DNA of 53,506 nucleotides, counting the filler, from Squatina squatina (taxonomy: Eukaryota), in assembly GCA_031763465.1 (NCBI GenBank). It is 3 parts of 3 records of this genome, joined end to end, with 100 filler letters (N's around TTAATTAATTAA, not from the genome) between each part and the next. Parts side by side here need not be neighbours in the genome. Positions count along the whole stretch, not along the records: positions 15,592 to 40,097 come from JARFOE010000194.1; 2 more parts are not named here. The stretch is one strand, 5' to 3'. The translations under genes were made by a program, and so were the position numbers. Numbering within the stretch: the stretch's first letter is position 1; every line of letters starts with the position of its first letter. This document shows, one piece after another, positions 15,492-51,574 of the stretch. The notes under the pieces were generated by a model. That model saw only the letters and a list, made by a program, of their open reading frames with translations, ran no database searches and was not told the origin of the DNA.

Positions 15492-15591
15492 NNNNNNNNN
15501 NNNNNNNNNNNNNNNNNNNNNNNNNNNNNNNNNNNTTAATTAATTAANNNNNNNNNNNNNNNNNNNNNNNNNNNNNNNNNNNNNNNNNNNN
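15492..15591. other. Artificial assembly linker N44-TTAATTAATTAA-N44
   Basis: 12-mer with stops in all six frames at 15536-15547, centred in a 100-nt spacer. Confidence 0.97.
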
Positions 15592-16223: not shown

Positions 16224-18859
16224 GTATTTGAAATTCTTGGGCGACTTTAACAGCCCATTTTTGTGATTCGATAATCGTGGTCTATGCTCTTGCAGTGGTG
16301 TAAAACAGAATTTTAGAAGTTCACCACTTTAACTAGTGAAGAAATTTTCTTGTTACGTGAGTTAACCTGCTGGCGTGCTCAGTGATCTCCGTTGTATGAA
16401 TTCAGAAGTTACAACAGAGAAACAGATCACTTGGCCCAAACAGACCATCCCAGTGTTTACCCTCCACGCCACCAAATAGCCCGAATCACATTTACCCCTT
16501 TTCCTTCACCAACCTATCCAATCTCACCTTGAATGTTGACATAGTTTTTGCTTCAATCACAACTCTCGGTTTGTGAAGTTTCTTCTGCCCTCTGCTCTAA
16601 ATCTCTCTCATTTAATCTTGTAAAAATTGCGCCTTGTTCTTGACCCCTCTACTAAAAACAGTCTACTTTTACCCGACCTATCCGTTCATCATTTTAAAGC
16701 CTTCGATTATATTGCTCTATAATCAGCGTTGTTCTGATGAAAACAGCCCCGGTTTTTCAAGTCTATCTTTGTATTTGTATTTTCTCATACCAGGCAGTCT
16801 CCTAGTGAAATAAAAGCAGAAAATGCCAGAAACACTCAGCAGATCAGATAGCATCTGTTGAGAGAGATGTAAATGTTTTTAGGGATTACCTTACTATCCC
16901 TCCGTGAGTTCTCGACCTTATGTATAACCTACTAGGTACAAATGTCTCAAATACATTAAATTTCAAGCAAAATAATCTTTTTATTACTAAACACTAGACA
17001 CTATAAACATAATTAGGACATCAGACATAGTTACTTATCAGTCACTGAGGCAAAGCCTGTTTTCTTTCTTTCTTTGTCAAAACTGCCTTTTGGACCCAGC
17101 GGAGCTGTTTACTGCTTGCTTTCTCTTTTTTTTCTTGCTTTGCTGATGTCTTCTTGTGTCTTCCTTTACCTCCCATTCCTTCTCTTCTGTCCCTTGTCTT
17201 TGCTTGTGTCTGAAAAAGCTGTTTGGGTCCTGGGTATTTATAACAAGAATTAGTTTCACTTTCATTTCTCAACACACATTTGTTTTTGGTTTTGTTTTCC
17301 TAAAAATGCTCAGTCATTTCGAGGAATTTGCTTGTGGTCATTTCCAGGAATTGGCTGACAATTGACTGACAGTCAATAGCATTACTTTAAAATACAAAAT
17401 TCACATTATATTTTAAACACCATAAACACCATTATAAATTTTAACAATACATAGAACATTTGGGAAATGTTGACATTTTAGGCCGATGGCCAGAATTGGA
17501 AGATGTTTGAGATAAACAGCTTTTAAGCAAGTACAGAGCCAGGGAAAAGGGGCAGATAAAGAACAAAAGGGAGAGAGCAGTGATTGGGCAGAATGCCCCT
17601 TCCCCACCTTCCCCATTGCTGCTCTACCCAAATCCCAGGACTTGCTTTAGGACTTGCAAGCGGCCCAACATTCATCTTTAGAANNNNNNNNNNTCTTTAT
17701 AAAAGCGGCGAGCTGCCTTTGGAGGCACGACAGGTGCCAACAGCTCACGCAAATAATGATAATGACCAATTTGAGGCTGACCTCAGGCCTCCAGTTGGGG
17801 CTCATGCTGTTGGCACACCACTGGCTAGACATCCCCAAACAAGCCGTAACCAGTTTCTACTCCCTTGTTCCTTTATCTCACCATTTTCCCTACTTTTAAC
17901 TGGTTGATTTTATTTTCCTGCTCTACTCCCTTTATTCCTGCTCCAGCTATCCTTTTTGCTAGATTATATTCTATTCGTTTATTAAAATCATCAATTTCTA
18001 CCTTCTCTACTTACTTTTTCTGATTGTTTTTATTTTCCCTGCCTCCTTTAATCCTAGTTTACACGACTCTTCAATTCCCTATTTATCCAATTTGCCAGTT
18101 CATTAGTTCCATTTCTGTTCAGATGTAGCTGATCCATGTGAAATAGCTCCGATCTTTCCCAGAACTGATACCAATGCACCATAAAACAGAAACCGTCTTC
18201 CTATATTCCACTCCTTTAGTGTTGAGCCACCTAATCTTCTTATCCTTCCCTATTCTAGCTTGCGGTTGGGGGAGCAGTCAGAGATTACCACCCTTGAAGT
18301 CCTGCTCCTAAACTGGCTTCCTGATCTCCTANNNNNNNNNNNNNNNNNNNNNNNNNNNNNNNNNNNNNNNNNNNNNNNNNNNNNNNNNNNNNNNNNNNNN
18401 NNNNNNNNNNNNNNNNNNNNNNNNNNNNNNNCCTCTGCAGTCGAATTGCACCCTCCCCCCCACCCCGGACACACACCAGCCCGAACTCGATGACCGACCC
18501 TTGTCGGGCGAGGAGGTGCTGGTGCCCATGGAACCCCCGTGCCCCAAATCTTACATCGGGAAAGCAGGTGAGCGCTGGGCAGAGATGGGCCCTGACAGAA
18601 AGCGGTGGATTAATCCCCTTAAATGCAGGCAGTGACAGGGCAGAGCTGGAGGCTTGTTCCGGCGACCCCTCTGGGCCTCGCTGTGGGTGAGAGAAAACTG
18701 TCCAGCGCCAGTGACGCACGCTCAGTACAGCAGGCTATAAAAATATCGCCTCATGGCACCAAAATAATTCCGTATTGGCGCGCAAACACTTTTGCTTCCG
18801 CCATTATGGAATTTTCCCCGAGAACTCCCTGAAACATTTTGCAAACCCCTTACCACAGT

Positions 18860-23272: not shown

Positions 23273-24801
23273 AAGGGAAAGGGAAGAGAGCAGAAGCTGC
23301 AAATAGTGCTTTGGGTGGAAGAGGAAGGAGAGTTAACTGAGAGGGAGTGGGCAGGGTGAGTATACACAAGAACTGGGAATGGTGTGAGAAATAAACAGTG
23401 CTTCAACTGGGAATGGAAATGTCAGCTTGAATGGGAGGTGAATAATGTGATAACGTAGGGTTGTGCTGATACAAGACCTCCTACCTCACGCTTCTTTTCT
23501 ATGTTAAAACCTAATGGAAGGAGGAGGCTCCAAGGATGGCTGCATGGCCTGCTGAATAGCTTCTTGAGATTCTGTTGACAAAGTACCTCATTATGCTGGT
23601 GGCTTTGAAGACTCAGCAACTACTGCTACGATGTGTGAATCAACCATCGAGGGCCAACTGTGTAGAGCCGGGTGTTGCTACATCACTAGCACTGAGATGG
23701 GAAGTGGAATCTTGTCCCCGTGGTGCTGTTACTTGCTGATGACACCTTGTTGTAACCAGAGATTCAGACTACATACCTGATTCTGCGCCACCTCCACCTT
23801 CTAAGGTCTCGCAGCCTCAACATATAGACTGTTATCTCTCCGACGTATGTGGGCCCACTGGTTTATTTATACTCTTTGGAAAGAACTTTAGTCGAGTGTT
23901 TTGTTCTCAAAGCTTTAGTCATTGGAGTGTTAGACCTGCGGGGAGAAAACGTTCATCAAAAATCTGGCTTTTAGTTCTCGTCTTTTGTTCTAATTGTTGT
24001 TTATAGCCGACTGCTTTTGGTGCTTAGCATGCAGGTAACCTCATGTCATAGCTTTATTCGGTTGCTGCCTCATTCTATGACACGCCCGTTTACATTTCAC
24101 ACAGAGCCAGGGAAATGCCCCAGCTTGATAGATGGAGCAGTGAGGGATGTGCCAGATCATGAATTTACAGATTGTACTGATTTACAATTCTGCTGCTGCT
24201 TATGACTCACAGCATCTCATGGATGACCAGTCGTTCTTTGTATGTCCTACTTGGCATGGATATAGTGCCATACTCTGCAATCGAAGGTGCCCTCACTGTA
24301 CAAACGAGACTTTGTTGTTCCAAGCACTGTGCACTCATTTTTCTTGTTTTGTAGCAGTTGTTTTACAATGGCGTGGCTTGCTACTCAGAGAACTTCAAGA
24401 ATCACCGCATATTGTGGGACTGGTGTAGGGGAGGTAGATTCCCTTTGCTGATATTAGCCCGTTGGGTTTTCATGACAATCCAGCAGCGAGCCCACAAATT
24501 ACCGGATTTATTTGGATTTGATCTCACGACTTCTGTGTTGCTTATCAGAACCATAACTACTGGGCGACCATACCCTCTTACAATACATTCAAAGTACTTA
24601 TCCATAACACATTTATTTTAATTACAATCATATGCAAATATTTTTTNNNNNNNNNNNNNNNNNNNNNNNNNNNNNNNNNNNNNNNNNNNNNNNNNNNNNN
24701 NNNNNNNNNNNNNNNNNNNNNNNNNNNNNNNNNNNNNNNNNNNNNNGTTTGATTTGATTTGGATTCTGATCTAACTGAACACATTCTGCCCGTCTCTTCA
24801 G

Positions 24802-24960
24802 CTCGGTAGTCCCCAGCAGAAACCCAAGCGCTTGCGGCTGCTTGTGGATGTCTCTGGCAGCATGTACCGCTTCAACGGAGTTGATGGCAGACTGGAACGC
24901 TCCATGGAGGCTGTTTGCATGGTCCTGGAAGCCTTTGAAAACTACGAACAGAAGTTTAAG
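24802..24960 (+). CDS. VWA8: VWA8 exon, start of VWA domain (LGSPQQKPKRLRLLVDVSGSMYRFNGVDGRLERSMEAVCMVLEAFENYEQKFK)
   Basis: tcttcag|CTC...AAG|gtaaag, 159 nt, phase 0-0, MIDAS DxSxS motif (DVSGS). Not in the ORF track. Confidence 0.95.
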
Positions 24961-25039
24961 GTAAAGGGTCGCTGTTAAACACAGCCAGCTGATTTGGTGT
25001 TTTGGAAAGTTGATAATACCAGGAGATCATGGAATCATA

Positions 25040-25365
25040 GAGCACAGAAGAATCGTGCCTGTGCCTTCTCTTTGAAGGAGCTATCCAATTTGTCCTACTC
25101 CCCTGCTCTTTCCCCGCAGTCCTGCAAATTTTTCCCCTTAAAGTGTTTATCCAATTCCCTTTTGAAAGTTATTAATGAATCTGCTTCCACCACCCTTTCA
25201 GGCATTCTTTCATAACTGCTCGCTGTGTATAAAACAAAAAAAGTTCCCTCCCTAGATTTTTTTTGGCCATTTGCCTTAAATCTCTGTCCTCCAGTTACCC
25301 ACCCTCCTGCTAGTGGAAGCACCTTATCCCTATCTACTCTGTCAGAACCCCTCATAATTTCATAA
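25040..25365 (-). mobile_element. CR1 LINE 3' fragment
   Basis: Minus ORF DRVDRDKVLPL...PERVVEADSLITFKRELDKH. Confidence 0.8.
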
Positions 25366-26397
25366 TTAATAAACATGGCTGCTTTTTCTGGCTTGTTTTC
25401 AGTAACTTGTACATAACAATTCAAGCTGTTTTATAGAATAGCCGTATCAATGAGGGGAGTTTTTCTAGTCTTTATGCTGTTATATGTGTCAGAAGAACAT
25501 CCCCTTAATACACTGTATAACCCTTGAGCTACTCCCATTAGGTCTTCAGCCTATCATTGATGAAAAGGCTCTGGCCTCCTAGCCAAATCCTCAAACCATT
25601 TTCCTCTCAAATTTAGCACTTTCAGAGTTTTCCCATCCATGAGCTTTACAGCCAAGTGTTAATTTCTATACTTCTGCAAATGTCGCTGGTCGACCCTCTG
25701 GACCTTAGCTCCGTCGGTTCCAGCAGGCCCTGGACAGCTTTGAACTCATTGAGCTTGGTCACTGCCTCAGCTAATGAACTGTGTGAACCAGTCTTGCTTG
25801 ACCAAGAGAACTGTCTTGGCCAAAGGTGGATCAAGCCTGCTTGTTTAATTCAAACAACACCACACAATGAATGAATCTACTTTTGTTGTGATTGGGCATG
25901 TAAGCTGAACCTGAGGATGGAGACAACATGGCTGAGAAGTTGGGTATAAACAGAGGTGGGTCTGGAAGTGCCTTGATTGGCCTTTCAGAGTGATATCGTG
26001 CACCTGTCGTCCAAGCACCGTGCTGAAGGAAAAGGAGCCGCATTTTGATTTAAGGTGAAGAAAGGGCACAGTTTGCTTCCAGTTTGTAACCCACTGCAGC
26101 CTTTGGATTGAGGAGGGCACGTGCTCCTTGGGGTGTACCAACAGGCTGCACACAAAAGACCGATGAGCAAGACCAGGAGAATTACAGCTGCACTGAGCTT
26201 AAACTGCTTAAATTCACAGACTAAAGAATATTGCGAATATTAATCGAGATCAGGAGGAGATAATGCCTGAGGTTTGTCAAAGTCAAAAGGCTTTTGGNNN
26301 NNNNNNNNNNNNNNNNNNNNNNNNNNNNNNNNNNNNNNNNNNNNNNNNNNNNNNNNNNNNNNNNNNNNNNNNNNNNNNNNNNNNNNNNNNNNNNNNN

Positions 26398-26602
26398 GTG
26401 ACCACACGCTTGAAGGAACAGAACACGCAGTCCAAGAGATCGCCAGGGAAGAGGCAGATGAACATTTTGTCATTGTGCTGAGCGATGCTAACCTGGAGCG
26501 ATATGGTATAAACCCCGCAAGGTTCGCCCGAGCCTTGACTTGCAACCCTCAGGTTAATGCTTTCGCCATTTTCATTGGATCTCTAGGTGATCAAGCAGAA
26601 AG
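26398..26602 (+). CDS. VWA8: VWA8 penultimate coding exon, 5' end in gap (DHTLEGTEHAVQEIAREEADEHFVIVLSDANL...FIGSLGDQAER)
   Basis: Close to recalled human VWA8 C-terminal VWA domain; donor AG|gtattt. Confidence 0.95.
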
Positions 26603-26651
26603 GTATTTACACAAAATTTATGAATTTTGTATGTTGTTATTCGTGTATATT

Positions 26652-27072
26652 TCTGAGTCAGAAGGTTGTGGGTTCAAGTTCCACTCCAAAGACTTAAGCC
26701 CATAGTCCAGTGCAGTGCTGAGAGAGTGCTGCACTACTGGAGGTGCCGTCTTTTGGATGAGAAGTTAAATGGAGGCCCTGGCTGCTCTCTCTCTGATGGA
26801 AGTCAAAGATCCCGTGACACTATTTCGAGGAAGAGCAGGGGAGTTATCCCCAGTGTCCTGGCCAATTTTTAACGTTCAAGTGCTATCACCAAAACAGACT
26901 ATCTGGTCATTATCTTATTGCTATTTGTGGGAGCTTGCTGTGCACAAATTGTCTGCCACGTTTCCTACTTTACAACAATGACTACACTTCAAAAGTACTT
27001 CATTGGCTGTACTGCGCTTTGGGATGTCCTGAGGTTGTGAAAGGTGGTGTATAAATTCAAATACTTTCTTTC
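26652..27072 (+). mobile_element. DeuSINE/SacSINE1-like SINE
   Basis: B-box gggttcaagttcc, Deu-type core and tail gaggttgtgaaagg..tataaat. Confidence 0.85.
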
Positions 27073-28399: not shown

Positions 28400-29560
28400 A
28401 AATGTGATAAGAAAAAGCCAATGTTATGTACAAAGACAAATAAGATATAAACAGAATATGTTTCTATAAATTAAAGAAATTTAATACTCAACTAAACATT
28501 GTGAAGTACAAGGAACAACTAAAGAAAACGAAGGCTGCTATTAGATCAACAAAAATGCTAATGGAAAAAAGGATCATAGACAACTGTGGAAGTAATGGGA
28601 AAAGCTATTTCAGTTGTGTGAAGAGTCAGAGAACTGTGAAAGACTGTACTGGGCCACTGAAGGGTGTTCAAGGACAGGCTACAAAGGACTCACTGGGTAT
28701 GGTGGAAAAATTAAATGAATACTTTGCATCGCTATTCACCCTTGAAGATGATGCTCAACTATTAGAATTTGATAATGTTACTAACAAAATTAATAATATT
28801 AGCATAGATGAACATATTGTTTTAGAAAGAATTAAGAACTTAAAAATAGATAGAGCAGCCAGGCCAGATGATATCCACCCGAGGGTCCTCAGGGAGAAGG
28901 GACGTGTGCTGTGCGAGCCCCTAGCCTGAATTTTTACAGCTCACTCCATTCTGGAATAGTTCCTCTGGACTGGAAAGAGGCTAATGTATTCCCCATCTAT
29001 AAAAATGGTGACAAGACAGGCCCGGATAACTATAGGCCCATTAGTTTAATATCGGTAATAGGTAAGATGCTTGCAAGAATCATTAGAGATGCAATATAGG
29101 AATGCTTGGATAGAGAGCGACATATTATGGACACCCAACATGGCTTCATAAAAAGGTAATGACTTACAAACCTAACCATATTTTTTGAAGAAGTTACAAA
29201 TTTGGTGGATGAAGTAGGTCCAGTAGACATTGTCCACTTAGACTTTCAAAAAGCTTTTGATAAGGTATCACACAAGATTGAAGCCTCTGGCATTAATGGT
29301 AATATATTGAGTTGGGTTGAGAACTGGATTTGGATCTGTTTGGAGACCGATTACCTGTGATGTCCCAGAGGGATCAATGTTAGGACCGTTGCCCTTCACT
29401 ATTTTTATTATGTAGGTGTTGGGGTACAATCTGCAAATTTGCAGATGCTACCAAGATCTAGGACTGTAGATAATACTCGTCTGCTTCAGGCAGATCTTAA
29501 TGTGTTGGGAGATTGGGCTCATGACTGAAAAATGACGTATAGATAAGTTAGATATAGATG
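28400..29560 (+). mobile_element. CR1-clade LINE ORF2 (RT) relic
   Basis: PDDIHPRVLRE, WKEANVFPIYK.GDK..PDNYRPISL.SVIGKML, QHGF, LDFQKAFDKV, PEGSMLGP and KFAD; several stops and frameshifts. Confidence 0.9.
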
Positions 29561-31409: not shown

Positions 31410-31480
31410 TCACATACTTTTTAATGTTTTGTCCAAATCAGCAATAAAGTCTTCCAGTTCCTTTGTATCTCCAAGCTTTG
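31410..31480 (-). CDS. RGCC: RGCC (RGC-32) last coding exon ([23 protein letters not shown])
   Basis: Minus strand tttacag|CA AAG CTT GGA...ATG TGA. Matches recalled human C-terminus [24 protein letters not shown]; convergent with VWA8 as in human. Not in the ORF track. Confidence 0.93.
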
Positions 31481-32724
31481 CTGTAAAGAAAAGAACCATT
31501 TGAGGATTTTCACTGAGGGTTGGCATTGCTAGTCTCTCCTGTTCACAAGATCTCGGGAAAACACAGAGTGCCTGATCAAAGGCCCATTTACATTGTTGGA
31601 GGGTACTAGTATAGTGGTTATGGTACTTGAACTAGCAACCCCCAAAAATGACCATTAAAGCTGTCCACTTATTGCAAAAACCCCCCAACTGATTCACTAA
31701 TGTTAGATTTGCCACTCCTTCAATCCCATACCAGTTGGCCCCAAAGCAAGATTCATAGGTTTGTTATGGTTGACTGCCAAGAAGACCTAGTAATAAGCCA
31801 ACTGCTGCATGCAAAGCAGGTTGAAATAACCACACACATGTGCCAAGAATGTGAATACATAATCACCTGAACTTCATGTTACTGACTGGGACCTTGCCTG
31901 GTACCAGGGTAAGAGCCAAACAGGGCAGCAATCAAACAGCTATCCTGTGAAAAGGCCCTTCTGTGGCCAAATATTGCCAGGGAAAAGGGTGGCCATTTAC
32001 ATTGGTACTGATGGCACCTTGCCTCTTGAGTTAGAAGTTAATGAGCTCTGCCTTTATTTATGCTTGTGCTGCCTGCAAGTATGTTACACAGCACACTGTC
32101 CCACAACCAGGTCATTGCAGGCACAATAAGCCACTTGCTGCAGAAGAATCAAAGCCAGTTCAAACTCCTGCACCAGGCCCTAGAGTTTCACTTGATTGAG
32201 ACTGATTAGTGCTGAGAGAACAGCTGCAAAACAAGCNNNNNNNNNNNNNNNNNNNNNNNNNNNNNNNNNNNNNNNNNNNNNNNNNNNNNNNNNNNNNNNN
32301 NNNNNNNNNNNNNNNNNNNNNNNNNNNNNNNNNNNNATAAAACCAATTATATTTTTTAAAAATCAGCTTTGGTTGATCCTTAACCTCTCGTACCCTGCTT
32401 TGGCTGAGATTCTCTCTTCCCTCCTTTTCGTCCCTTCCTCATTTAATCAAATGGCCTATGTCTTTTTGGTCCATTGAGGTCCAAACATAATTCATGGCCA
32501 CTCTAAATGAGATACCAGAGGACCCTGAGCACACTTGGAACTATTTTAGCCAGGTGTCATTGTAAAGAGGAAATTGAGGCATTCTTTGTGTACATTGTAC
32601 ACAAGTTGAATGTGAATTTTATATTGAAGTGCAATATCATAACTAAATTGTGTTGAATTTTTGAAATTACACTATACACTTGAAGTGTGTATAAAATGTA
32701 TCCATTCTCTTTTTTAAATTTTAG

Positions 32725-34027: not shown

Positions 34028-34158
34028 AGGCCTTTTTATTATTGATGACAAAGGAGTACTGAGACAAATTACAATGAATGATCTCCCAGTGGGCCGGTCA
34101 GTGGATGAAACCCTTCGTTTAGTTCAAGCATTCCAGTACACTGACACACACGGTGAAG
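34028..34158 (+). CDS. PRDX4: PRDX4 exon ([43 protein letters not shown])
   Basis: ttctag|A...GAAG|gtacat; canonical Prx sequence. Confidence 0.95.
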
Positions 34159-34362: not shown

Positions 34363-34397
34363 TTTGCCCGGCTGGTTGGAAACCTGGAAGCGATACG
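34363..34397 (+). CDS. PRDX4: PRDX4 35-nt exon with resolving Cys (VCPAGWKPGSDT)
   Basis: tttatag|TT...ACG|gtaaga; phase-compatible with the preceding exon (G|TT = Val). Confidence 0.95.
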
Positions 34398-35425: not shown

Positions 35426-35576
35426 CTCCGTAGGTCTTTGGGATAACCTGCATCACATCTTTCTCCGAGGCAAAGGTGAAATGGAAGATATTGGTAGTGT
35501 TGTGCTCTTTTGTGAGTGGATCGACAACCTCACTGTGCACTCTGACCTGGATATATTTGTTTTCAGTATAACAAAC
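35426..35576 (-). CDS. ACOT9: ACOT9 penultimate coding exon (VCYTENKYIQVRVHSEVVDPLTKEHNTTNIFHFTFASEKDVMQVIPKTYG)
   Basis: Minus strand ctctacag|GTT...GGAG|gtaaca. Matches recalled human VCFTQNNYIQVRVHSEV...TTNVFHFTF.SEK....PKTYGE; tail-to-tail with PRDX4 as in human. Confidence 0.92.
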
Positions 35577-36602
35577 CTGTAGAGTGAGGAAAGGACGTTG
35601 TTAATGAAACACAAACAGCTGCTTCGTCNNNNNNNNNNNNNNNNNNNNNNNNNNNNNNNNNNNNNNNNNNNNNNNNNNNNNNNNNNNNNNNNNNNNNNNN
35701 NNNNNNNNNNNNNNNNNNNNNNNNNNNNCAATCCCACCAAGAGTCTAAACTCTTTGTAATGGCCAAGTTCATCTAAAAATTGAATATAGCTCCCATATCT
35801 GAGCACGTTGATAGTTCCATCACATTCTTTGACTGTATACATGCAAAGCTGGTCTCCAGCTAGCCTCCAACTAATGACACACTTCTCAGCTCTCCCTCAA
35901 CTTTCTCAATACTGCTATGGTCAGTGCTCCTCTGAAGCTTGACCTCCTGGTCCTCCAAAGTTGCAAAAAGGTCATGCTGTCTCCTACTCTAATTCATTCT
36001 ATCCCAACACCTTGAAACTTGCTTCCTTCAGTCTGGCCTTCCTCCGACAACAATCTCAAACTTTGTTGTCAACCAATCATTGTGTCCTGGTTTACCGAAT
36101 CATCTACCCATTTCAACTTGGGCCTTGGCCTCTCATACATACCACACTGACCAGACAGAACTGTGGTGTTTCTGCATTCAGAATCAACATCCCCCAATAC
36201 TGCTCTCCACACATCTCCCATATAGTGTTCAGCATATTTCCAAGTTTGCCGATTTTAAAAATGACCACCACAGAGCAGGATAACAAGCCAATAATTGGGA
36301 TTTAGGATCTCATATACCCTTGATTCCTGCATTATCTTCATTTATCATCTTTTCTACCCTTTCATACATTTCACGCGATCTTTGCTGTTCTTGCTCAAGC
36401 CAAAAAAAGTTCAATAGCTTTAAAACTGTTGTGTGCCAGTTTTACCTCCAAATGAGTCAAGGTCTTCAAGGATCCTGCCAAATCTGCGTAAGGAAGAATA
36501 CACCAAGACTCAATATAAAAATATTGTATGTTATTTGAGAAAGTTTGATGCCAAGCTGAAAGGTAATTGAAACTATAAATCATAATTGATCAACTGTTGT
36601 AC

Positions 36603-36752
36603 CTTATAAAATTATGTACATTCAGATACTTCTCTCTTAAGTCGGGCTGGCATCCTAATGGTAGATAAGCCTCCAGATAACTGTCCATCATTCGCCGACA
36701 TGGCAAGTCGCCCTGGTGGGTTACTGTTAGAGGACTTGAAGCTTTTTCCTTT
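36603..36752 (-). pseudogene. ACOT9: ACOT9 N-terminal exon, apparently 5'-truncated and frameshifted (THQGDLPCRRMMDSYLEAYLPLGCQPDLREKYLNVHNFIR)
   Basis: Matches recalled human SQDGLPPRRMKDSYIEVLLPLGSEPELREKYLTVQNTVR, with donor AG|gtacaa intact. Upstream RKKLQVL is in a different frame and abuts Harbinger-like sequence. Confidence 0.65.
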
Positions 36753-36754
36753 GC

Positions 36755-37890
36755 AGATTGGAAATGTATGGGCTCTGTCGTGTATGCAGAGCCTTGTGTA
36801 ATGTCAAAGGTGGACTCCTCCATGCTCCTTATCACTGCCGAGAGGCTCTCAGGCACCCTTGCCATTGCATCTATCATCTCTGTGTGCATGCCCATCATCT
36901 TCTTCTAAATGCCTCCCTATCAAGGTCCTCATCTGAATCCTATGCAGCGGAACTTGTGCACAAACTCACTCTCCAGGGATCTGGCCCCGGAGCTACCCTT
37001 TTCCCCCTAACCTTGCTGCAGCCCACTTGTCCTCAGTGCCTCACCCTGTGCAGATCCTGCTACCATACTAGCGTCAAAAGAATGTGTGGTGCCAGTATCT
37101 GAGCTGGTGCCTGCAGGTAAGACATGCAGTGACGTGGTGTGTTCTTCTTCTTCCTCTTCTCCCGCCTTGCTCTCTACAGTGCCCTCAGGGACAGGCTGTT
37201 CTGGTGCTTGCTGATTATCTGAAAGCATAAAAGTGCAAGAGTTAGGTTAAGGTGAGGGGAGTGGGGCAGGAAGGGAGAAATGCATGCAAACAACATGATT
37301 AGCTGGACAGTACAAAATGGTTGTGGCATGATGGGGAAGTGGGATGTGAGAAGGAGTATGGATGAACATACTGTTGTTGTGCCCAAGGGGGTCAACGTCA
37401 CAGATGGCCATGGCTTCCCCCACCTGGTACCCAATAATCTGCAGCCTGTGAACTCGTGCTCTCTCCTGTTGTGAGCCACCTTGGCCTGCCTGTAAGAAAG
37501 AGAGTTAGTGTGGAGCAATGTGTTTGGGTGATGTGCCTGCCATAGTTGAATAACTATCATTGTGTGCAAGTTGTAGATGAGGGTGTGCATGTTGGTAGGT
37601 AGAGATTGTTGGCGGGTGAGTGTGGTACTTTAGGCAGTGTATGAAGATTGTGGTTCAGGTGGAGGTATGTACTATTTGTTGAAGCCTTCACTCACCCTTG
37701 CCACCCGAGTGAGGTCATTAAATTTCTTCCTGCAATGTGTGTGGATCCTGGGACCACAGTGCTGCCTGAGACATGCTGCACTACCTCCCTCCACATGGAG
37801 CGTCTCTCCACAGCGAACACCAATGCTTCCAATGCTTGATCGCAGAATCTGCAGGCTCTCACCCTGGGGTGTGGATCTGCCATGAGTACA
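36755..37890 (-). mobile_element. Degenerate Harbinger Myb/SANT-like (ORF1) gene with introns
   Basis: RACRFCDQALEALV...WREV...HCRKKFNDLTRVAR|gtgagt; next exon cttacag|..AKVAHNRRE; then GMHTEMIDAMARVPESL..SMEES. Multiple frameshifts. Confidence 0.7.
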
Positions 37891-38851
37891 GCTGCTTCAG
37901 TCCTCCGGCTCCTTCTCCTTGACCTGCTGGTACTTGTTGAGGCAGTGGCACAGCCAGCAATACTGACAATGAGGTCCTGCAGCATCAATGAACCTCCCCT
38001 TTAAGAACTGGAAAAGCCTGTGGCAATCATGACTTGCGATTAGACTGCACCTGATATTGGTCCACCCTTTGAGCATCACACCAATGAGCTTGGGCTTAAA
38101 GACTTGAACTAGGACTCCAATCATTTATTTGAGCATTGAGCACGAATTTTGTGTTCAGTCTNNNNNNNNNNNNNNNNNNNNNNNNNNNNNNNNNNNNNNN
38201 NNNNNNNNNNNNNNNNNNNNNNNNNNNNNNNNNNNNNNNNNNNNNNNNNNNNNNNNNNNNNGTGTATCAAACCAGTACTTGATTTTTTTTTATTAACAAG
38301 AACTGTTTTCCTTTGCAGATATGTACAAAAAGGAAAGATATATATTTAATGTAATGAAGGAAATTGTTGGTTGAGAGGCTACCAATTTTATTAATGCATT
38401 AGTATACCAGTGTAGTTAAATACTGTTGTATTGTATCCTGACTGTTCCTAGTAATGGCATTAATTTTCTTTTATAAACATGTTGGGGCCTTTCACACTGG
38501 TCTTTTAAGTCCGCATTTGGATCCATTTTCCATGGCTGCCTTGAAGGCCTAGTTTGAGCTGGGTCTACAAGTCTGCTGCTGGATTAAGGAAACCAAATTT
38601 AACAGTATAACTGCGGAGTGCCAACTTCTGAATCCGCCTTAAGACCAATCTGAAAGCAACTTTGGGTAGCAGCAGAAGATTCCTATAAAGGTTTTGAGAG
38701 CTTGCTGTGTAATCAATTCATGTTGATTGGTCCAAAGGATAAGCTCGATGAATTGAAATTTCTTAAATGTGACAATTACCTTTTTTAATATCTGGTTCTT
38801 GTTTTCAATAATGTTGAATGTATTCTCTTTTAATTTATCTCCAATCTTCAG

Positions 38852-38957
38852 GTTACAGTCTTTAGCTTCGCCATGTACATGGCCCTAGGCGTGTACATGG
38901 GTGGGCGGGCTGGTAACTGAAAGATCCATTAAACATTAGATGATCTTGATAATGGAG
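38852..38957 (+). other. SAT1: SAT1 poison exon X (SSAT-X-like NMD exon, normally between exons 3 and 4)
   Basis: Pyrimidine tract and cttcag|, donor GAG|gtaagg, 106 nt, stops in all three frames, phase-1 entry reads (G)YSL*. Closely resembles the recalled mammalian exon X; order PRDX4(+), ACOT9(-), SAT1(+) matches human Xp22. Constitutive SAT1 exons are not assembled here. Confidence 0.8.
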
Positions 38958-39329
38958 GTAAGGCCCAGAGGGACATGCTACTTGCAATTTTTTTTTTAAA
39001 AAGAGGAAGAAGGATAGCGAAAGCATGGTAGATCAGAACTATTGTATGCATTGCCCTTACAAAAGTGCCCTTTGAAACATTGGCAATGATTGTAAAGTGT
39101 TAAATGAGCTGTTGTGCTTTTTGTGACATTAAGCTGAAGTGGTGAATTTACAGTTTTACCAAAGGGTGAGGGGCTCTGTGTTTGGCAAAATCAGGGCTGA
39201 TTTGAGATGGACTCATGGTATCCTTCTGANNNNNNNNNNNNNNNNNNNNNNNNNNNNNNNNNNNNNNNNNNNNNNNNNNNNNNNNNNNNNNNNNNNNNNN
39301 NNNNNNNNNNNNNNNNNNNNNNNNNNNNN

Positions 39330-39788: not shown

Positions 39789-39861
39789 GGCTGACTACTG
39801 GAAGTCTCAGCCAAAGAAGTTCTGCGATTACTGCAAATGTTGGATAGCAGACAACAAACCA
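39789..39861 (+). CDS. WBP4: WBP4 (FBP21) exon 2, matrin-type zinc finger start (ADYWKSQPKKFCDYCKCWIADNKP)
   Basis: ttctgcag|G GCT...CCA|gtacgt. Matches recalled human MADYWKSQPKKFCDYCKCWIADNRP; the leading G completes a split AT|G. Not in the ORF track. Confidence 0.93.
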
Positions 39862-40097: not shown

Positions 40098-40197
40098 NNN
40101 NNNNNNNNNNNNNNNNNNNNNNNNNNNNNNNNNNNNNNNNNTTAATTAATTAANNNNNNNNNNNNNNNNNNNNNNNNNNNNNNNNNNNNNNNNNNNN
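40098..40197. other. Artificial assembly linker N44-TTAATTAATTAA-N44
   Basis: Identical to the linker at 15492-15591; 12-mer at 40142-40153. Confidence 0.97.
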
Positions 40198-41295: not shown

Positions 41296-41798
41296 AAATT
41301 TTAAGGCAAGGCAAAAACAAAATTGGAAGATTTCTGCTATGTATAGTGAAACTGTAAAATAGCTCTTTGTATACATGCTTACAATCTTGCTATTAATAGT
41401 GAAAAACAGAAATGTTCTCCTTTTGTTTTTAAACAAAAGATTAAAATAATATTGGGGTTAATTTTAACTCCCTCCACCCAGCGGAAACTGAGCAGAGGGT
41501 GCAATAAGTTGGAGCGGGCTATTTACTCACTCTGTTCATGCCCTGATCTGATTGACTGCCGATGCAGGTAGGGTCCTTCTTTAAATGTGCAGATTGGGCT
41601 CCAATGACATCATTGGGACCCGNNNNNNNNNNNNNNNNNNNNNNNNNNNNNNNNNNNNNNNNNNNNNNNNNNNNNNNNNNNNNNNNNNNNNNNNNNNNNN
41701 NNNNNNNNNNNNNNNNNNNNNNTGTGAATTGTTGGCGGATGGGTCTGGATGTGTGCACCATTTGCTCACGTTGTGTTTCCATTTTCCTTGGGTTGCAG

Positions 41799-42325
41799 GT
41801 GATGTGTTCATCCTGGTTTTCAGCCTGGACAACCGAGACTCGTTCGAGGAGGTCCAGCGCCTCAAACAGCAGATCATGGAGACCAAGTCCTGCCTGAAGA
41901 ATAAGACCAAGGAAAACATTGACGTCCCCATCGTCATCTGTGGCAACAAGGGCGACCGGGACTTTTACCGAGAGATACCCAGGGAGAAGATCCAGCAGTT
42001 GCTGGATGGCGACTCGAAATGTGCTTACTTCGAAATCTCGGCCAAAAGGAACACCAACGTGGACGAGATGTTCCAGACGCTGTTCACCATGGCCAAGCTG
42101 CCGAGTGAGATGAGCCCTGACCTCCACAGGAAGGTGTCGGTGCAGTACTGTGACATCTTGCACCGAAAGACCTTCAGAAGCCGCAAAATCAAAGACGAAG
42201 ACGTCTATGGCATCGTGGCCCCCTTCGCCAGAAGGCCGAGCGTGCACAGCGACCTGATGTACATCAAAGAGAAGGCGATCGGCGGGGGCCAAGCCAGGGA
42301 CAAGGACAGATGTGTGATCAGTTAA
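41799..42325 (+). CDS. RASD1: RASD1 (Dexras1/AGS1) exon 2
   Basis: ttgcag|GT GAT GTG..., G4 CGNKGD, G5 EISAK, RRPSVHSDL and CaaX CVIS*; convergent with MED9 as in human. Confidence 0.95.
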
Positions 42326-43719
42326 ATCGGCTTTTGGGGGGGCGCTTTTGTTATTATTTTTGTTTGTTGGAGAAGGACGCAAATTAATGGAGCCCACAGA
42401 CGTGGTTGGGGGACAGGTGCTCCAGGCCCCTACGAACCCGTNNNNNNNNNNNNNNNNNNNNNNNNNNNNNNNNNNNNNNNNNNNNNNNNNNNNNNNNNNN
42501 NNNNNNNNNNNNNNNNNNNNNNNNNNNNNNNNNNNNNNNNNGTGAGAGAGAATTCTGGATACACGAGGGGGTCTATGCCCTCCCTGTAAGGGACTTTCTA
42601 CATGTCAAAAAATACAACAAAGATGTTCCTTTCACAGTTAGTATGGTACCATTACACCCCACAAACATCTTGCAGTGGGGAGAAATAGTACCATGGTAAC
42701 CGGAAAGAGAGTTTCTTAAATGGAGAGTAATAAACATGTAACATATGTGGAACCACCCACCCAAAGAGATTGCAGTTCACACAGCTCAAAACCAGGAATA
42801 GGACAGGAAGAAAATGTTAATGATTAATTGAAGCATTCTGGGCATTATCCCTTCACTTTATTAGTTATTACTGAATGTGAAATGACTTTTCTCCATCACT
42901 GCCAAATCACATTAGTGCTGCTAATTGCCGCTACTGCTACTTTTTGTTAGAAGATCAACTGACAAGGTTTTATTAAATGGACAATAAGACAGATCATTCA
43001 GCATAAACTCAGTGAATACATAGCCAGATTCAAACTTCAATACCCATTACTTGGTGTTGAACTAATTATCTGTATTGATTTTGAATGCCAAACCACTTTC
43101 AGAACATCCAGCTAACCGGTTGCTGGAAGCTTAAAAGCGTAATAGATTTTTGAGCAGTTTCTAGATGCAAAAGCATGCACAAATTAAACTTTAAGTCACA
43201 AATCTACTGTTAAAGACAATATAGAAGAAGTCGAGAAGGAGCCATAGTCCCAGAGCAATGGCATTCTACATTCCATTTCTTGGTAAATCTGAATTCATGC
43301 ACCAGCTGACCAAATCCAAATTATTTCATTGCTAATGCAGCATGTGCCTTCATGCGCAAATAGATCAGAAAGCCAGAAAGATTTCACTTCTTCATACGTA
43401 CTCTCATCAGTCTTACCAGTAACACAAGTGTGATTCAGTCAATACAGTTGTGTATATTGGATGCACTAATTGCTAACAGTGGACATATATTCTGATAAAG
43501 CTATCTCTATAGAGAGCTAGAGGGAGAGCGCGCGCGAGCTAGAGGGAGAGCGCGATATACACCGTGCATACACTGTGTACTAAATTCAACAAGCGGTTTA
43601 TAACTCAATAAACCATTATTAAGCTACAATCTTGCCCATATTTCTGTGGTTATAAACTCTGCAGTAAAAAGATGCATCCAGAATGGAAACTTTCCTTAAT
43701 GCTGCAACGTAGTCACTGC

Positions 43720-43936
43720 CTATGTTTTGGGGATGTCAAACATGCAAAGGCTCTTGTACTTCTGTAGAAGTTCATTCTTGGTGTGAACCTGATCTCGCAA
43801 ATTTTGAAGCTGCTGCTGCTGCTGTTCAGGACTAACATCAATCCCAGGCATCGATGAAATCATCTCCCGGGTCTCCTGCAGCTTGGTCTTCAGTTTATTA
43901 AGCTCTTGGTGCACATCTTGGCTGTCTTTGTCCATG
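43720..43936 (-). CDS. MED9: MED9 exon 2 ([16 protein letters not shown]...[13 protein letters not shown])
   Basis: Minus strand gtgcag|C ATG GAC...; matches the recalled Mediator subunit 9 C-terminal half. Confidence 0.95.
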
Positions 43937-46900
43937 CTGCACTCAATAAAATCAGTGGAGAAACCATTACACACAGTACCAAGTTTTTACAAAATGATTA
44001 ATAGCAACATTACTGTGANNNNNNNNNNNNNNNNNNNNNNNNNNNNNNNNNNNNNNNNNNNNNNNNNNNNNNNNNNNNNNNNNNNNNNNNNNNNNNNNNN
44101 NNNNNNNNNNNNNNNNNNAATTAACTGAATTTAAATCCACAAACTGCCATGGTGAGACTTGACCTCACACCTCCAAGGTTATTAGTTCTGGCTGCTGGAT
44201 TACTAGTCCAGTAGCATAACCACGATGCTACCATACGCCTTATTAAGGTCTGGGGAAACAAGGCAGGTACTGTAGATAGAGTTGAGGTGAAGATCAGCCA
44301 TGATATAATTGAATGGTGGAACAGGCTCGAGGGGTTGAATGGCCTGCTCCATTATATAAGACCCCCTTTATAGTCTTTTCACACTTCTATTTTTCCCTCC
44401 TTTTCAATATTCTTTTCCTCTTTCTCTTATCCTTTCCTGTTTTTTTAAAATTTCTTCTTTATCGAGTATAGCTAGAGATATTGGTATCATGTTCTGGGAC
44501 TTCGAGAGAATGTCCCCAGCTTTAATCTGAAGGTTTAACAGCTATGGGATTTGTACACGACTGAGATTTTATTAAATAAAGGACAAAAGTAGATTGACAA
44601 CTTAAGCCTCTGAGAGACCGTCTCTACTTTCTGCACTGTTATGTGTTTTACGCTTCATTGCATATTACATATTGTATATTGAAACAGGGGACGTCATTGG
44701 TATGATCACTTTATCTAACTTCATTGTGCTAATTCCATTTTTCTATGGCCTGTACCTTCACTTTGTATTGAAACCAGATCGAATAATGTGTTCTTTGTTC
44801 TTCAGGCTAGGGAACGAACTGACAGTCAAGGGAACAGTTTGATGGTTGATGATAATTGACAGAGCACAATACTGAAAAAATGCAGCATATTGTTTGCTTT
44901 TTCATACTTCTGTGTTAATCAGCACCACGGGTTCCAGTGAGCATACGCCCAAAACCCAAGACACGTAGGCACAGCGGCTTGAAGTGTGACCCTCGCAACT
45001 CTCGGCCAAACTATAGGGGAANNNNNNNNNNNNNNNNNNNNNNNNNNNNNNNNNNNNNNNNNNNNNNNNNNNNNNNNNNNNNNNNNNNNNNNNNNNNNNN
45101 NNNNNNNNNNNNNNNNNNNNNGTGTGCGACACTGGCCATATTTATCGCCCATCCCCATGAACAACTGAATGATTTGCTAGATGACTTCAGAGGGCATTAG
45201 ATTCAACCACATACTGTGGATTACAATCACATATAAGCCAGACCAGTTATAGGTGGGAGGTTCTCTTCTCTGGAGGACATAAGAGAACCAATTGTGATTT
45301 TACAAGAAGGCCACAGCCAAACTGTTATGAAATGCAGAAATACAAAATGCTTTGAGACTAATATCCTAATCACTGGGAGGTGCACACATTTCATGCTGTA
45401 TACATTTCCTAATACTAGCTGATCCCCCATGCTGGAGCTCAAAGGCAGTCTGGGGTCTGGACCACTGTTTGTTTAACTGCTTAAGATGGCACTGTGTTTA
45501 ACTTTATCTGTCCCTTCTAAGACCAGTGCTCAAATATTCTCTGCACGGGTACTGGTCTAAATAGGTCAAACCTGATGTCAGTCAGTAGCTAAATCCTGAA
45601 GAAAGTTCCTGTAGACCAGTCGTTGCTTGTGAATCCACAGTGCCTGCCCTTGAGAGCACGGAAGAAAAACTAAAAGGAAATAGCTCACTTTCTTTTTTAA
45701 TACTTTTTGCATTACTAAATACAACAACAGAAGTATCCGGTGCAGATGTTGGATTTATGGCTTTTTATATATCATAGGAACAGGGGTAGGCCACTCAGTC
45801 CTTCTAGCCTGTTCCGCCATTCAAAGAGATCATGCATTAGTAGCAAGTCTCCTGTGGCAATGCTCATGGTAAATGTCAATAATATATAAAAATTCTTAGG
45901 CAGCCCATTCCCTTTAGGAATTCCAATGTTAAAATGTCAACACTAGAGACCTTAGCCTGTCTCTAAAGCCTGGGCTTCAACTGGATATTAATCCCCCAGA
46001 ATGTTTGAAGAGAGTTTGCAACCACATCTAATTCTCTTAAACATTTACAGAATTTCTCAGCATGCGATTTGTAAGTTCTGAGCATGTGCATTTTGCAGTT
46101 CCCCAACAGGCAGCAGTAGGGTTCTGAATCAAAATAAAGGATGAGTCCTCTCATCCTGTCGGATTTATGAGTTTCTTTGCATTTTCTTGGAGACTTTTAA
46201 AGTGATTTAAACTCAGCTAGAAATTAAATTTAAATTATTACAAAGCTTCTGATCAGCTGCGGCCCACTTCAATCACGGCAAATCACTTCACTCTTTATTT
46301 CAGTTGAAAATTCAGTCAAAGATTTTTCTCTTTTGGGGGCAATTGGTTCTCCTGGCTGGACAGTCAAGATTGGTTGCTTCCATAATTCCGCAGGAATTTT
46401 TTATTGGCAATTTTTTGCAGCTTACTGTGCTTTTGACTCATCCATTCCCTACTTCTTCACTTCTGATTATTTCTTGTTTTACTTTAAGTTGATCAACAAT
46501 GTGTGATGATGAATGTTGATAGGATTTTCCCATAATAATCTTTCACGTAGGGGTTTTTCCAATCTAAATGCTGGTATTTAAAATGCTACTCACAATAGTT
46601 TTTATTCAATTTGATAAAACACCACTTTATAAGGCTCATAGTTTCCCATTGTGTTATAAATGTAATCAGATGATTATATTCACAATCTATAATATCGAAC
46701 ATGAATTTTCATGATGATAGCAAAGCATGGACTGAAATTATATATGTAGCTGCAGCAGCAATGGAAGAGGCGAACGCCTGACACACCAAATGCAATGTGG
46801 TTGTGACATTTTATTCTTTAAATTTACAGCCATCTCCGTCCCTAAAATATTGAAATGGTTGATATACCATTTCATATATAACCCAGTGGCAATTTCAGAA

Positions 46901-48845
46901 AACTCTCAATAGACAGAAAGATCCTTGGGTCATTTAGTCTCAGGGATAGTGTGTACCGTTTCCATAGTTACACTCAAACATGTGTGCTCACCAATGGATT
47001 ATTGTACTTAAGAAAGTTTCTCAACATGTTACCGTTGTCATAAATTTGAAGCAAGCTATTTTACATTGCTTTTAGTGGCTGATTCAATGATATTTTGTTT
47101 ATACAGGACCAATTGTTGTGTTGGTTTTGTAACTGAACGATTTATAAAAAGTACATAATGGCACACTGAAGTGTTACTGCCTTGTAATTCTATGACATGA
47201 TGGGAAATATGCAATAGGCTCCTTTGAAAAGGCAGGTAAGCATTTTTATGTATGATTATAAAAAAATGTAATAATATGCACTTTCATGCTTGCAAACCAA
47301 ATAAAAAGCACATTGACAGGAGGGTTTACCAGATGAAGAGTGTAGTTGTGCTTCATGAAAACCTTGTCAGCAGCTTCTCCACTGTACAACAACAACTTGC
47401 AGTTATTTAGCGCCTTTAATGTAGAAAAACCTGCCAAGGTGCATCACAGGGGAACAATAAATTCAACTATTTAAATATATGTAATACAATTAGGATTTGC
47501 AGTAATTACTGGATGTATTGCATGATTGTGACATATGTAATTATGTGGTATCATCACTATACATATCATAGAAACATAGATAATAGGTGCAGGAGTAGGC
47601 CATTCGGCCCTTCGAGCCTNNNNNNNNNNNNNNNNNNNNNNNNNNNNNNNNNNNNNNNNNNNNNNNNNNNNNNNNNNNNNNNNNNNNNNNNNNNNNNNNN
47701 NNNNNNNNNNNNNNNNNNNATGCCACTTGGGCGTTAACGCCTTTGCACCCAGAATGATATGACCTTCCTGCAGCCTTTCCTTCAGATATGCTTTCCATGG
47801 CAATTAATTGTAAGAGTTGTATATATAGTACAAAGTTCAAATTGTTTACTAAAATGTCTTGTTACATGGTGCACAGTAAATAGTCGGGAAGAACCACCAT
47901 TAATCTCAAACAGGTCTGATACATTCTGCTGTTACAACCTTGTCTCCAGCTTCCAGACCAAACTTTGTTCTTAAAATAACACACACATTTATTGATATGG
48001 GTTTTCACCAGACTGTACTTTTTGTTTCAAAGTTGTTAGGACACCAGCAATTCATTTTAATTACAAACTATGATGACATTTGTTCAAATGCTTTCTTGAA
48101 TGGTCAAAAGTAGTAGCTCACCAAAATATAAAACAGTCTTGTTGCTAGATGCTGTAAAGAACGTGTTTACCTTGGAGTTATCTTGGTTTTATGATCAGTT
48201 TCTTTTTTCTCTCACCAGGATAGCTACTAAACACAGTTTTTTGTAGGACTCATGCCGAGTAAGCCGCTGTCTGTTTCAGTGCTGGAAAATAAACTGGAAA
48301 AATTTACTGACAACCAAGGAAAGGGAACTGCAGTGGGAAACANNNNNNNNNNGAAAGAACAAACTAGCCAGTAATGAAACTGCATGGATGAATAAAGAAA
48401 TAAGGGCAAAATTGAAACTAAAGGAAAAGGCATACATGAAATATATGGACAACAAAGGAGAGGATGACACAAGGGAATACAAAAAGGTGTTAGGAATGAA
48501 GTAAAAAAAAATTAGGAAGGCAAAGAGAAACTACAAAATTAAATTAACAAGAAATATATAAAGAAATAGTAAAGTATTCTTCAGGCACGTAGGCCGGAAT
48601 TTTCTCTACCAAGTCGGGTTGGGTGTGTGCGGGCCGCATAGCCGGTTGGTCCTGCGATGTACTGATCAGCCTGCTCTTCAGAGCGAGTGTAGCATAATGG
48701 CCGCTATNNNNNNNNNNNNNNNNNNNNNNNNNNNNNNNNNNNNNNNNNNNNNNNNNNNNNNNNNNNNNNNNNNNNNNNNNNNNNNNNNNNNNNNNNNNNN
48801 NNNNNNNCTGGTGTCAGAGACTTGGCAGGTATGCGCTTACTCAAA

Positions 48846-50150
48846 ATGAGTAAATCTCGGATCTTCCAGATCAGCGGCATCATGGCCTCTGTGTTCATGA
48901 TTCTACTGATAATATTTTATTGGGATGATGTTGGCACAACCCATTTCTATTTGCACACTGCGTTCACAAGAATTCAGACCACACATCTTCCTACTATGAC
49001 AAGCCAAAACCACGACCATCCAAATTCCAAAAAGATAATAGAAGAAAGAATGCCCAGTTTCAAAGCTGATATTATTCAGGATGATATTGAATTAATGTAT
49101 GTGGAAAACTCAAAGGGATACCAAGGGGAAGGAGGTTCCCGTAAGATGGAACAAACCTTCAATGCAATAACTCTACCCAGCCTTGAGGAGCAGCTCCAAG
49201 GCCTTGACTTGAGAATCAATTCTATGAAAACTAAGACTGAGTTAGAACGGATACAGAATGAGAGGATACAGAATGAGAGGAAACAGAAAATTGAAGATAT
49301 TTGTGCAGACTCCAGTATCATGTTCTCAGGGAAAAATAGGTATTTTGAAGATATTCCAAATAAAGAATTGGACCATCTAATTGTAGATGACCGGCATGGG
49401 ATTATTTACTGCTATGTTCCCAAAGTGGCCTGCACTAATTGGAAACGGGTCATGATCCTATTGAGCGAAAGTCTTTTAAAGCANNNNNNNNNNCGTGATC
49501 CACTTGAAATCCCCAGGTATCTTGTGCATAACTCCACCAGCCATTTCACCTTCAACAAGTTCTGGAAGCGCTACGGAAAATTCTCAAAACACCTCATGAA
49601 GATCAAACTGAAAAAATACACCAAATTTCTCTTTGTACGTGATCCTTTTGTAAGACTAATTTCTGCATTCCGCAGCAAGTTTGGAAAGCAGAATAAAGAT
49701 TTTTACAGCCGCTTTGCAATCCCGATGCTCCAACTGTATGCTAATTATTCTAACCCGCCACCATCTGTCAGTGAGGCTTTCGCTGCAGGAATCAAGCCTA
49801 CCTTTATTAACTTCATTCAGTATTTGTTGGACCCTCGGACAGAGCAGGATATGCCTTTTAATGAACACTGGCGACAGGTATATAGGCTATGTCACCCATG
49901 TCAAATAAATTATGACTTTATTGGAAAACTAGAAAGTTTGGATGAGGATGTCCGTTACCTACTTAAATTGTTGAATGTGGAAAAGCTTGTTCAGTTTCCA
50001 CCCAGTTTGCAGAACCAGACAATTGCCAGCTGGGAAGAGGACTGGTTTGCAAAAATTCCGGTAGCCTGGAGGAAAAAGCTGTATGAACTTTATGAGCCTG
50101 ATTTTGTTGTCTTTGGATATCCCAAACCCACAAATTTATTATTTGACTGA
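48846..50150 (+). CDS. CHST12: Carbohydrate (chondroitin 4-O) sulfotransferase 12, single coding exon (10-N gap at 49484-49493)
   Basis: Type II anchor [13 protein letters not shown], 5'-[15 protein letters not shown], 3'-[16 protein letters not shown]-terminus FGYPKP.NLL. Start taken at MSKSRIF by analogy with human MTKARLF. Confidence 0.93.
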
Positions 50151-50797: not shown

Positions 50798-50935
50798 TGT
50801 TGACGGTGTCCTGCATTGCAGGCCAGTGCCGTTCACTGAAGTTTCTTTGCTGATTAAAGTAATGCCTGCCCAGAGGACTGACATTTATGGTTTTTCTCCT
50901 TTCAAGCAAGGAGAGGACATACCGTGTGGTGCTCG
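50798..50935 (+). other. Candidate exon downstream of the CHST12 stop
   Basis: Long pyrimidine tract ending tctccag|, donor CG|gtaaac, 138 nt with one open frame; protein not recognised. Confidence 0.25.
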
Positions 50936-51574
50936 GTAAACACAACCTCAAAGCTTCAGAACTGGGATCAGTTTCGTTTGAGATTGCTCCAGGGAACATA
51001 TTTGTCCATGAGAAATGGAATCCAACTCTTGTTGCCCTTGGGTAAGCACCAATTTCTTATCTTGTGGTGAAGAAAAAGTGGAAGGTACTCTGTTGTATCG
51101 CAATTTCAGATGAGATTCCCTACCTATATGATGTTTCTGGTTCCACATCATTCTTCTATCTCTCTGGGGCCAACTCAAAAGCCAATAGTTCCTCGTGGAT
51201 GTGAGTTAATTGTACAGGATTAGCCGCAATTCAGTGCCAGTTAACACTCACACATCAGTCTCATTCAAACTCATTTTACAAAGGGTCCTCACAATCACAA
51301 GAGGGATGAAACTTCACCCCATTAATCTTGGCTGGATTTCAGGAATGATTGGAGAGCATCACAGTCCACTTCACCATCAAAACTCTAATTTCATTGAATC
51401 TGGTTATGATTTTACTAAATATTGCTTAATCCTCTACAAACTTTTGACCATTATGCACTAAACACTTTCTGTCAGCTTTGGTAATCCCATATTTGAGCCA
51501 GGTATGTCTTCAGCACTGTAGCAGGTCAACCAGGCAGCCTGGCTCACTAAAGGAGGGGTTGACATTTTAAAAAT

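Follow-up and report, generated by a model that had tools for sequence, protein, structure and literature searches.

The window, i.e., the whole stretch of 53506 nt analysed here, is made up of 38 short N-free pieces and two 12-nt spacers of A and T only (15536-15547 and 40142-40153), the latter probably being scaffold separators. The assembly is highly fragmented, with gaps of 10 or 100 N between pieces and one gap of 657 N, so that gene order across the gaps is a poor guide to distance. Features scattered along the window include a long low-complexity repeat rich in purines, in which GC skew and AT skew are both strong (5300-7166), broken ORFs that by eye resemble a LINE reverse transcriptase (28444-29357), and a Ras-family exon on the + strand, which we take to be RASD1, next to MED9 on the - strand (41723-43986). 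The segments 48810-50147 and 50863-51042 hold a long sulfotransferase exon (Pfam Sulfotransfer_2) with a 10-N gap inside it and a short serine-protease-like ORF, the latter seen by eye and without a Pfam match.

The central scaffold piece carries peroxiredoxin exons on the + strand, assigned to PRDX4 with a margin of about 1-2 bits over PRDX1, and ACOT9 exons on the - strand; both genes lie upstream of a 106-nt exon, with N gaps of undefined size in between (Table 1). The best 8 of the 71 ACOT9 matches are from sharks, so that the source is a cartilaginous fish and most probably a shark, in keeping with the first-pass annotation, which had placed the exon in a cartilaginous fish, and the ACOT9 protein of the window is ~65% identical to its mammalian matches. 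On the same scaffold piece, the PRDX4-ACOT9-SAT1 block is flanked by vWA-type exons (24775-26702, without a Pfam match), which we assume to be VWA8, and by RGCC (Pfam; 31413-31631), and the contig next after that of the exon holds a U1-zinc-finger exon (Pfam; 39789-39861), presumably of WBP4. In human, VWA8, RGCC and WBP4 are presumably located on a chromosome other than that of the PRDX4-ACOT9-SAT1 block.

Coding exons of SAT1 were searched for in six frames with ten SSAT-type motifs, and none was found (two chance matches of one loose motif); likewise, acetyltransferase families gave 0 matches among 52 chosen ORFs (Pfam). Their absence is expected, because only ~125 of the 442 ACOT9 residues are present in the window. 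Human SAT1 adjoins PRDX4 and ACOT9 (PMC3543422), and the neighbourhood of PRDX4, ACOT9 and the 106-nt exon agrees with the human one, APOO lying outside the comparison. The order PRDX4(+), ACOT9(-), SAT1(+) that had been read from this region is thus upheld for the first two genes, whereas its third member is the 106-nt exon itself, given that no SAT1 coding exon was found.

The exon is preceded directly by AG and followed directly by GT, and it contains stops in all three frames, at codon 23 in phase 0, codon 12 in phase 2 and codon 4 in phase 1, so its description as a bounded exon closed in every frame holds. Entry in phase 1, a phase assigned from published human primers and the SSAT reading frame, reads Tyr-Ser-Leu-stop. 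Recomputing the coordinates returned the same phase-1 stop as before, and its distance of 92 nt from the next junction exceeds the >50-55 nt of an NMD-type criterion. In human exon X the stop presumably occupies the same three bases. The acceptor tract is 79% pyrimidine at -30..-3, with branch-point-like motifs at -24/-22, and AG is absent between 38744 and 38849, leaving an AG-free zone of ~105 nt before the acceptor. Donors that score as well against the consensus are found at 127 of the 2639 GT sites of the + strand. The 968-nt contig that carries the exon is likely a piece of SAT1 intron 3. Fourteen sequencing runs, from five organisms and five studies, share 0.05-0.11 of the words of this contig and carry no weight for or against its splicing.

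Table 1. Features of the SAT1 exon X region and its neighbours, in window coordinates
Feature	Position	Strand	Basis or remark
Two peroxiredoxin exons, PRDX4 by best match	34028-34158, 34363-34397	+	11 of top 12 PDB rows named peroxiredoxin-4
ACOT9 exons, two contigs	35426-35576; 36447-36805	-	5' part nearest the poison exon
Contig carrying the exon, 968 nt	38262-39229	+	100-N gaps at both ends; exon alone on contig
Branch-point-like motif, pyrimidine tract and acceptor AG (38850-38851)	38828-38851	+
Possible 10-bp helix, pyrimidine tract (38834-38843) with donor (38953-38962)	38834-38962	+	weakly supported
106-nt poison exon, almost certainly orthologous to the 110-nt exon X of human SAT1	38852-38957	+	AG/GT borders; human oligo matches
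Premature stop TAG, phase-1 entry	38863-38865	+	first TAG; ends 92 nt before exon end/donor
Predicted lower stem: 38856-38861 with 38907-38912, 38865-38868 with 38903-38906, then exon start or acceptor AG with 38913-38920	38852-38920	+
Predicted upper stem, 11 bp (38871-38881 with 38890-38900)	38871-38900	+	pair probabilities
Donor site	38955-38966	+	kept with human to +9; 7/9 consensus positions

In human and mouse, exon X of SAT1 (also called SSAT-X, SAT1-X or "exon 4"; NR_027783) lies between exons 3 and 4 and is an NMD target repressed by polyamines (PMC12350098, PMC7337517). Because its inclusion leads to NMD in mammals and polyamines repress that inclusion (PMC12350098, PMC7337517, PMC8522690, PMC6547430), SSAT rises at high polyamines. 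The human exon is 110 nt long (PMC7337517) and its place after exon 3 follows from inclusion and exclusion primers and an intron piece (PMC12350098 supplement). What is reported here from the main texts of these four papers, and from PMC3543422, PMC12999471 and PMC13296549, refers to the available portions of each.

Published human oligos, i.e., the inclusion primers and the RIP reverse primer of PMC7337517 (Table S1) and the exon X primer and 5' splice-site oligo of PMC8522690, were compared by eye with the shark sequence. Within exon X, the inclusion primer agrees with 38852-38862 at 10/11 positions and the RIP reverse primer with 38866-38885 at 20/20 (PMC7337517), a match expected by chance 3e-8 times per window; the exon X primer agrees with 38888-38906 at 16/19 and the 5' splice-site oligo with 38954-38966 at 11/13 (PMC8522690). 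Furthermore, the last three exon bases in the human reverse inclusion primer are those of the shark exon (PMC7337517). The four human oligos are colinear on the shark exon and fix both splice borders in register; identity amounts to 57/63 from the exon start to donor +9, or 57/75 when the whole donor oligo is counted, since its deeper part (+10..+21) matches at 0/12 positions (PMC8522690). Outside the oligos are 38863-38865, 38907-38953 and the acceptor tract. By eye, no obvious shark counterpart was seen for the human intronic RIP forward primer (PMC7337517) or for a 437-nt human intron piece (PMC12350098 supplement).

The shark exon is close to its mammalian namesake, as the first-pass annotation had stated. 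The two share phase-1 entry, the early stop and the PRDX4/ACOT9 neighbourhood, and differ in length (110 against 106 nt) and in the intron past +9, which is unrelated. The sequence match makes it almost certain that 38852-38957 and human SAT1 exon X are orthologues. The match also bears on the suggestion that the bases after the stop are under non-coding constraint: 39 of the 43 covered exonic bases downstream of the stop are identical in human and shark, against none of the 12 at intron +10..+21. Because this identity is reached although the ACOT9 protein is only ~65% identical to its mammalian matches, the constraint, as judged from this comparison, is real.

Because a shark possesses an exon nearly identical to the human one, the element likely goes back to the jawed-vertebrate ancestor. 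Of the earlier proposal that the whole regulatory circuit goes back to that ancestor, the sequence part is sustained; the circuit itself is a further step, and zebrafish has been reported not to use the exon. In that species ssat1a adjoins acot9 and ssat1b/c adjoin prdx4, and RT-PCR revealed no alternative form of ssat1a/b/c, from which the study concluded that the exon is unused there (PMC3543422). Set beside the shark exon, this result suggests that the exon was lost or went undetected in zebrafish, rather than that mammals invented it. Searches of the mostly non-subscription literature found neither exon X outside mammals nor a hairpin in exon X, and SAT1 is absent from nine supplements of a human-mouse-zebrafish screen for intronic elements (PMC5369223) and, by term search of the main text, from a 2026 preprint on RNA structure (bioRxiv 10.64898/2026.10.24.761493). 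Relative to the literature searched, the extension of exon X to a shark is new, as is the predicted hairpin over its acceptor; in the available portions of PMC7337517, PMC12350098 and PMC8522690 such a hairpin is unmentioned.

The whole exon has a predicted folding energy of -38.3 kcal/mol (z -3.84). Its first 66 nt, i.e., the 5' two thirds, reach -31.8 kcal/mol (z -4.09) with none of 1000 shuffles as stable, whereas the last 40 nt fold in an ordinary way (z -0.64). Among the 738 tiles of the window the hairpin region has the lowest energy and the fifth-lowest z, and the larger unit 38823-38975 has z -4.8, with 0/500 shuffles as stable. The core of the prediction is the upper stem, 10 of whose 11 pairs have probabilities of 0.9-1.0 in all four sequence contexts, and whose two arms are both kept in human primers (PMC7337517, PMC8522690). 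These arms contain a 9-nt direct repeat (38874 and 38892) and a 14-nt palindrome (38870-38883), and since two copies of a self-complementary motif are present, the upper stem follows automatically. The lower stem was rejected as independent evidence: with the upper stem held fixed, 745/5000 and 391/5000 shuffles were as stable. Opening the acceptor is predicted to cost 16.0 kcal/mol, compared to 6.8-13.1 for eight control coding-exon acceptors of the window, one of which was scored at two candidate AGs and several with shorter context. The hairpin as modelled buries the acceptor and may be a control element of the exon.

Human and shark differ at 4 of the 50 hairpin positions covered by oligos, mostly in loops. 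The mean pairing probability is 0.41 at the four differing positions and 0.84 elsewhere (permutation p 0.012; hypergeometric 0.001-0.016), one of the four, 38888, being paired at 0.92. Judged by eye, the difference at 38889 gives human a pair where the shark has a loop-closing mismatch, and one wobble pair of the stem is common to the two species. No two-sided compensatory change is present among the covered pairs (two species, 50 positions), and an invariant stem of this kind cannot separate structure from sequence motifs. Rfam gave 0 matches at gathering score in the window with 4227 families. Two other tiles fold well: 38526-38591 on the same contig, ~260 nt upstream of the exon (-25.6 kcal/mol, z -3.7), at which no long inverted repeat was found, and 18762-18827, with the lowest z of the window (-7.4, from 25 shuffles).

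A second candidate, the helix between pyrimidine tract and donor, has p ~1.0 in three flanked contexts. It was equalled by 64/5000 and 198/5000 tract shuffles, by 7 of 120 tracts, by 2 of 234 donors (its own site included) and by 318 of 10000 random tract-donor pairs. The cost of opening the donor is 10.6 in one folding window and 4.9 in another, the latter value within the 2.0-5.3 of six controls, and a human difference, at 38954, falls on one of the paired bases. This helix was downgraded from a firm feature because of the dependence on the folding window and the human difference on a paired base, and it may serve as a weak lead. At the human donor, a sense oligo identical to the splice site of exon X raised inclusion, for which its authors offer only speculation (PMC8522690); the effect, which bears on the mechanism, could be that of a decoy for a repressor or could come from strand displacement. 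The shark counterpart of that oligo is 38954-38978.

The regulators of exon X published so far are proteins and trans routes, namely RBM10, TDP-43/MALAT1, KDM3A and SF3 phosphorylation (PMC12350098, PMC7337517, PMC8522690, PMC12999471), and a 2025 paper describes the details of the SAT1 splice choice as unknown (PMC12350098). The polyamine "metabolic shielding" of SF3 in the U2 snRNP explains how polyamines control the splicing of SAT1, with 3' splice-site use as the controlled step; it is a trans mechanism that acts on many exons, and, in the available portions of its source, no cis element in exon X is named (PMC12999471).

The reading that we prefer, at a probability of about 0.5, is that the shark counterpart of exon X is likely the same poison exon and that the predicted hairpin over its acceptor likely sets the rate of inclusion. 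By analogy with mammals, inclusion between exons 3 and 4 would very probably send the mRNA to NMD, because the stop would then stand 92 nt upstream of the following junction, and would lower SSAT. It is probable, with less assurance, that inclusion would go up when polyamines fall and down when they rise, which would close a feedback loop. More tentatively, with chances slightly below even, the untranslated part may owe its conservation to a fold that brings it back onto the exon start and the acceptor. In such a model the 3' splice site would be structure-limited and would become polyamine-sensitive either via U2/SF3 activity or via direct stabilisation of the helix. A structure-limited acceptor would explain both the frozen untranslated bases and the sensitivity of the exon to the state of U2/SF3 (PMC12999471).

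One alternative, which we regard as unlikely although it has some weight, accepts the same orthologous poison exon and attributes the conserved untranslated part to two protein-binding sites, one in each copy of the 9-nt repeat; the hairpin would be a by-product, and polyamines would act only through trans factors, e.g., SF3 phosphorylation or RBM10. The direct repeat and the palindrome, the non-significance of the lower stem alone and the absence of compensatory change among the covered pairs all agree with it, as does the fact that exon X is already known to be reached through SF3 shielding and through RBM10 (PMC12999471, PMC7337517, PMC13296549). However, identity extends outside the repeat (38866-38873 and 38902-38906) and the human/shark differences avoid paired positions (p 0.012); moreover, the change at 38889 makes a loop-closing pair and the wobble pair is retained in both species.

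Polyamines stabilise RNA helices. In its boldest form, the preferred reading would make exon X a 450-million-year-old polyamine-sensing RNA switch, similar to a riboswitch, in which spermine and spermidine directly stabilise the fold that closes the acceptor, with the donor perhaps closed as well. The SAT1 pre-mRNA would itself read the polyamine level and skip the poison exon, a riboswitch-like control of splicing in vertebrates; we consider this quite improbable. It is also improbable that the orthologous element is, in sharks, no polyamine-regulated exon, whether through rare splicing, a response to different signals or retention for a role at the DNA level. Such a view could call on the zebrafish genes ssat1a/b/c, which showed neither alternative splicing nor induction by DENSPM, but that test, as described in the available portions of the paper, was run without NMD block and without polyamine depletion (PMC3543422). 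Furthermore, the conserved stretch runs from the initial base of the exon to donor +9 (11/13, followed by 0/12), and these limits are the footprint of an exon.

There is very little to suggest that the exon is maintained for a short truncated SSAT protein instead of for decay. The first 14 exon bases are in frame and the single difference among them is synonymous, and a title in the reference list of PMC3543422 speaks of a protective SSAT isoform, both of which are in favour of this idea. Against it, the coding bases are only 14 of 106, and the identity after the stop (39/43) lies beyond them; the human form, in addition, is described as an NMD target (PMC12350098, PMC7337517, PMC8522690). Finally, a misplaced contig, a paralogous copy or contamination, i.e., a sequence from outside the shark SAT1 locus beside ACOT9, is scarcely credible: the contig is isolated in a gapped scaffold and followed by one with an unrelated U1-zinc-finger exon, yet the position of the exon, after the 5' portion of ACOT9, is that of SAT1 in human, a human copy is excluded by the ~10% divergence of the exon and an intron without likeness to the human one, and a retrocopy by the intact splice signals.

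Hairpins are a known feature of MAT2A. The metabolite-responsive unproductive splicing of MAT2A and OGT (PMC13296549) resembles that of SAT1, as in each case the mRNA of a metabolic enzyme is adjusted by the enzyme itself via a conserved non-coding element coupled to decay; MAT2A and OGT use detained introns and protein sensors, whereas SAT1 uses a cassette exon with a hairpin predicted inside it. The SAT1 poison exon is among the best-known metabolite-responsive splicing events, and the shark exon serves as a natural footprint that marks its important parts, namely the exon start, the two arms of the stem and the donor to +9. This footprint singles out a candidate cis element, specific and cheap to test, for the polyamine control of SAT1, one that would be relevant to therapy with DFMO and polyamine analogues and to the viruses that shift exon X inclusion (PMC7337517).
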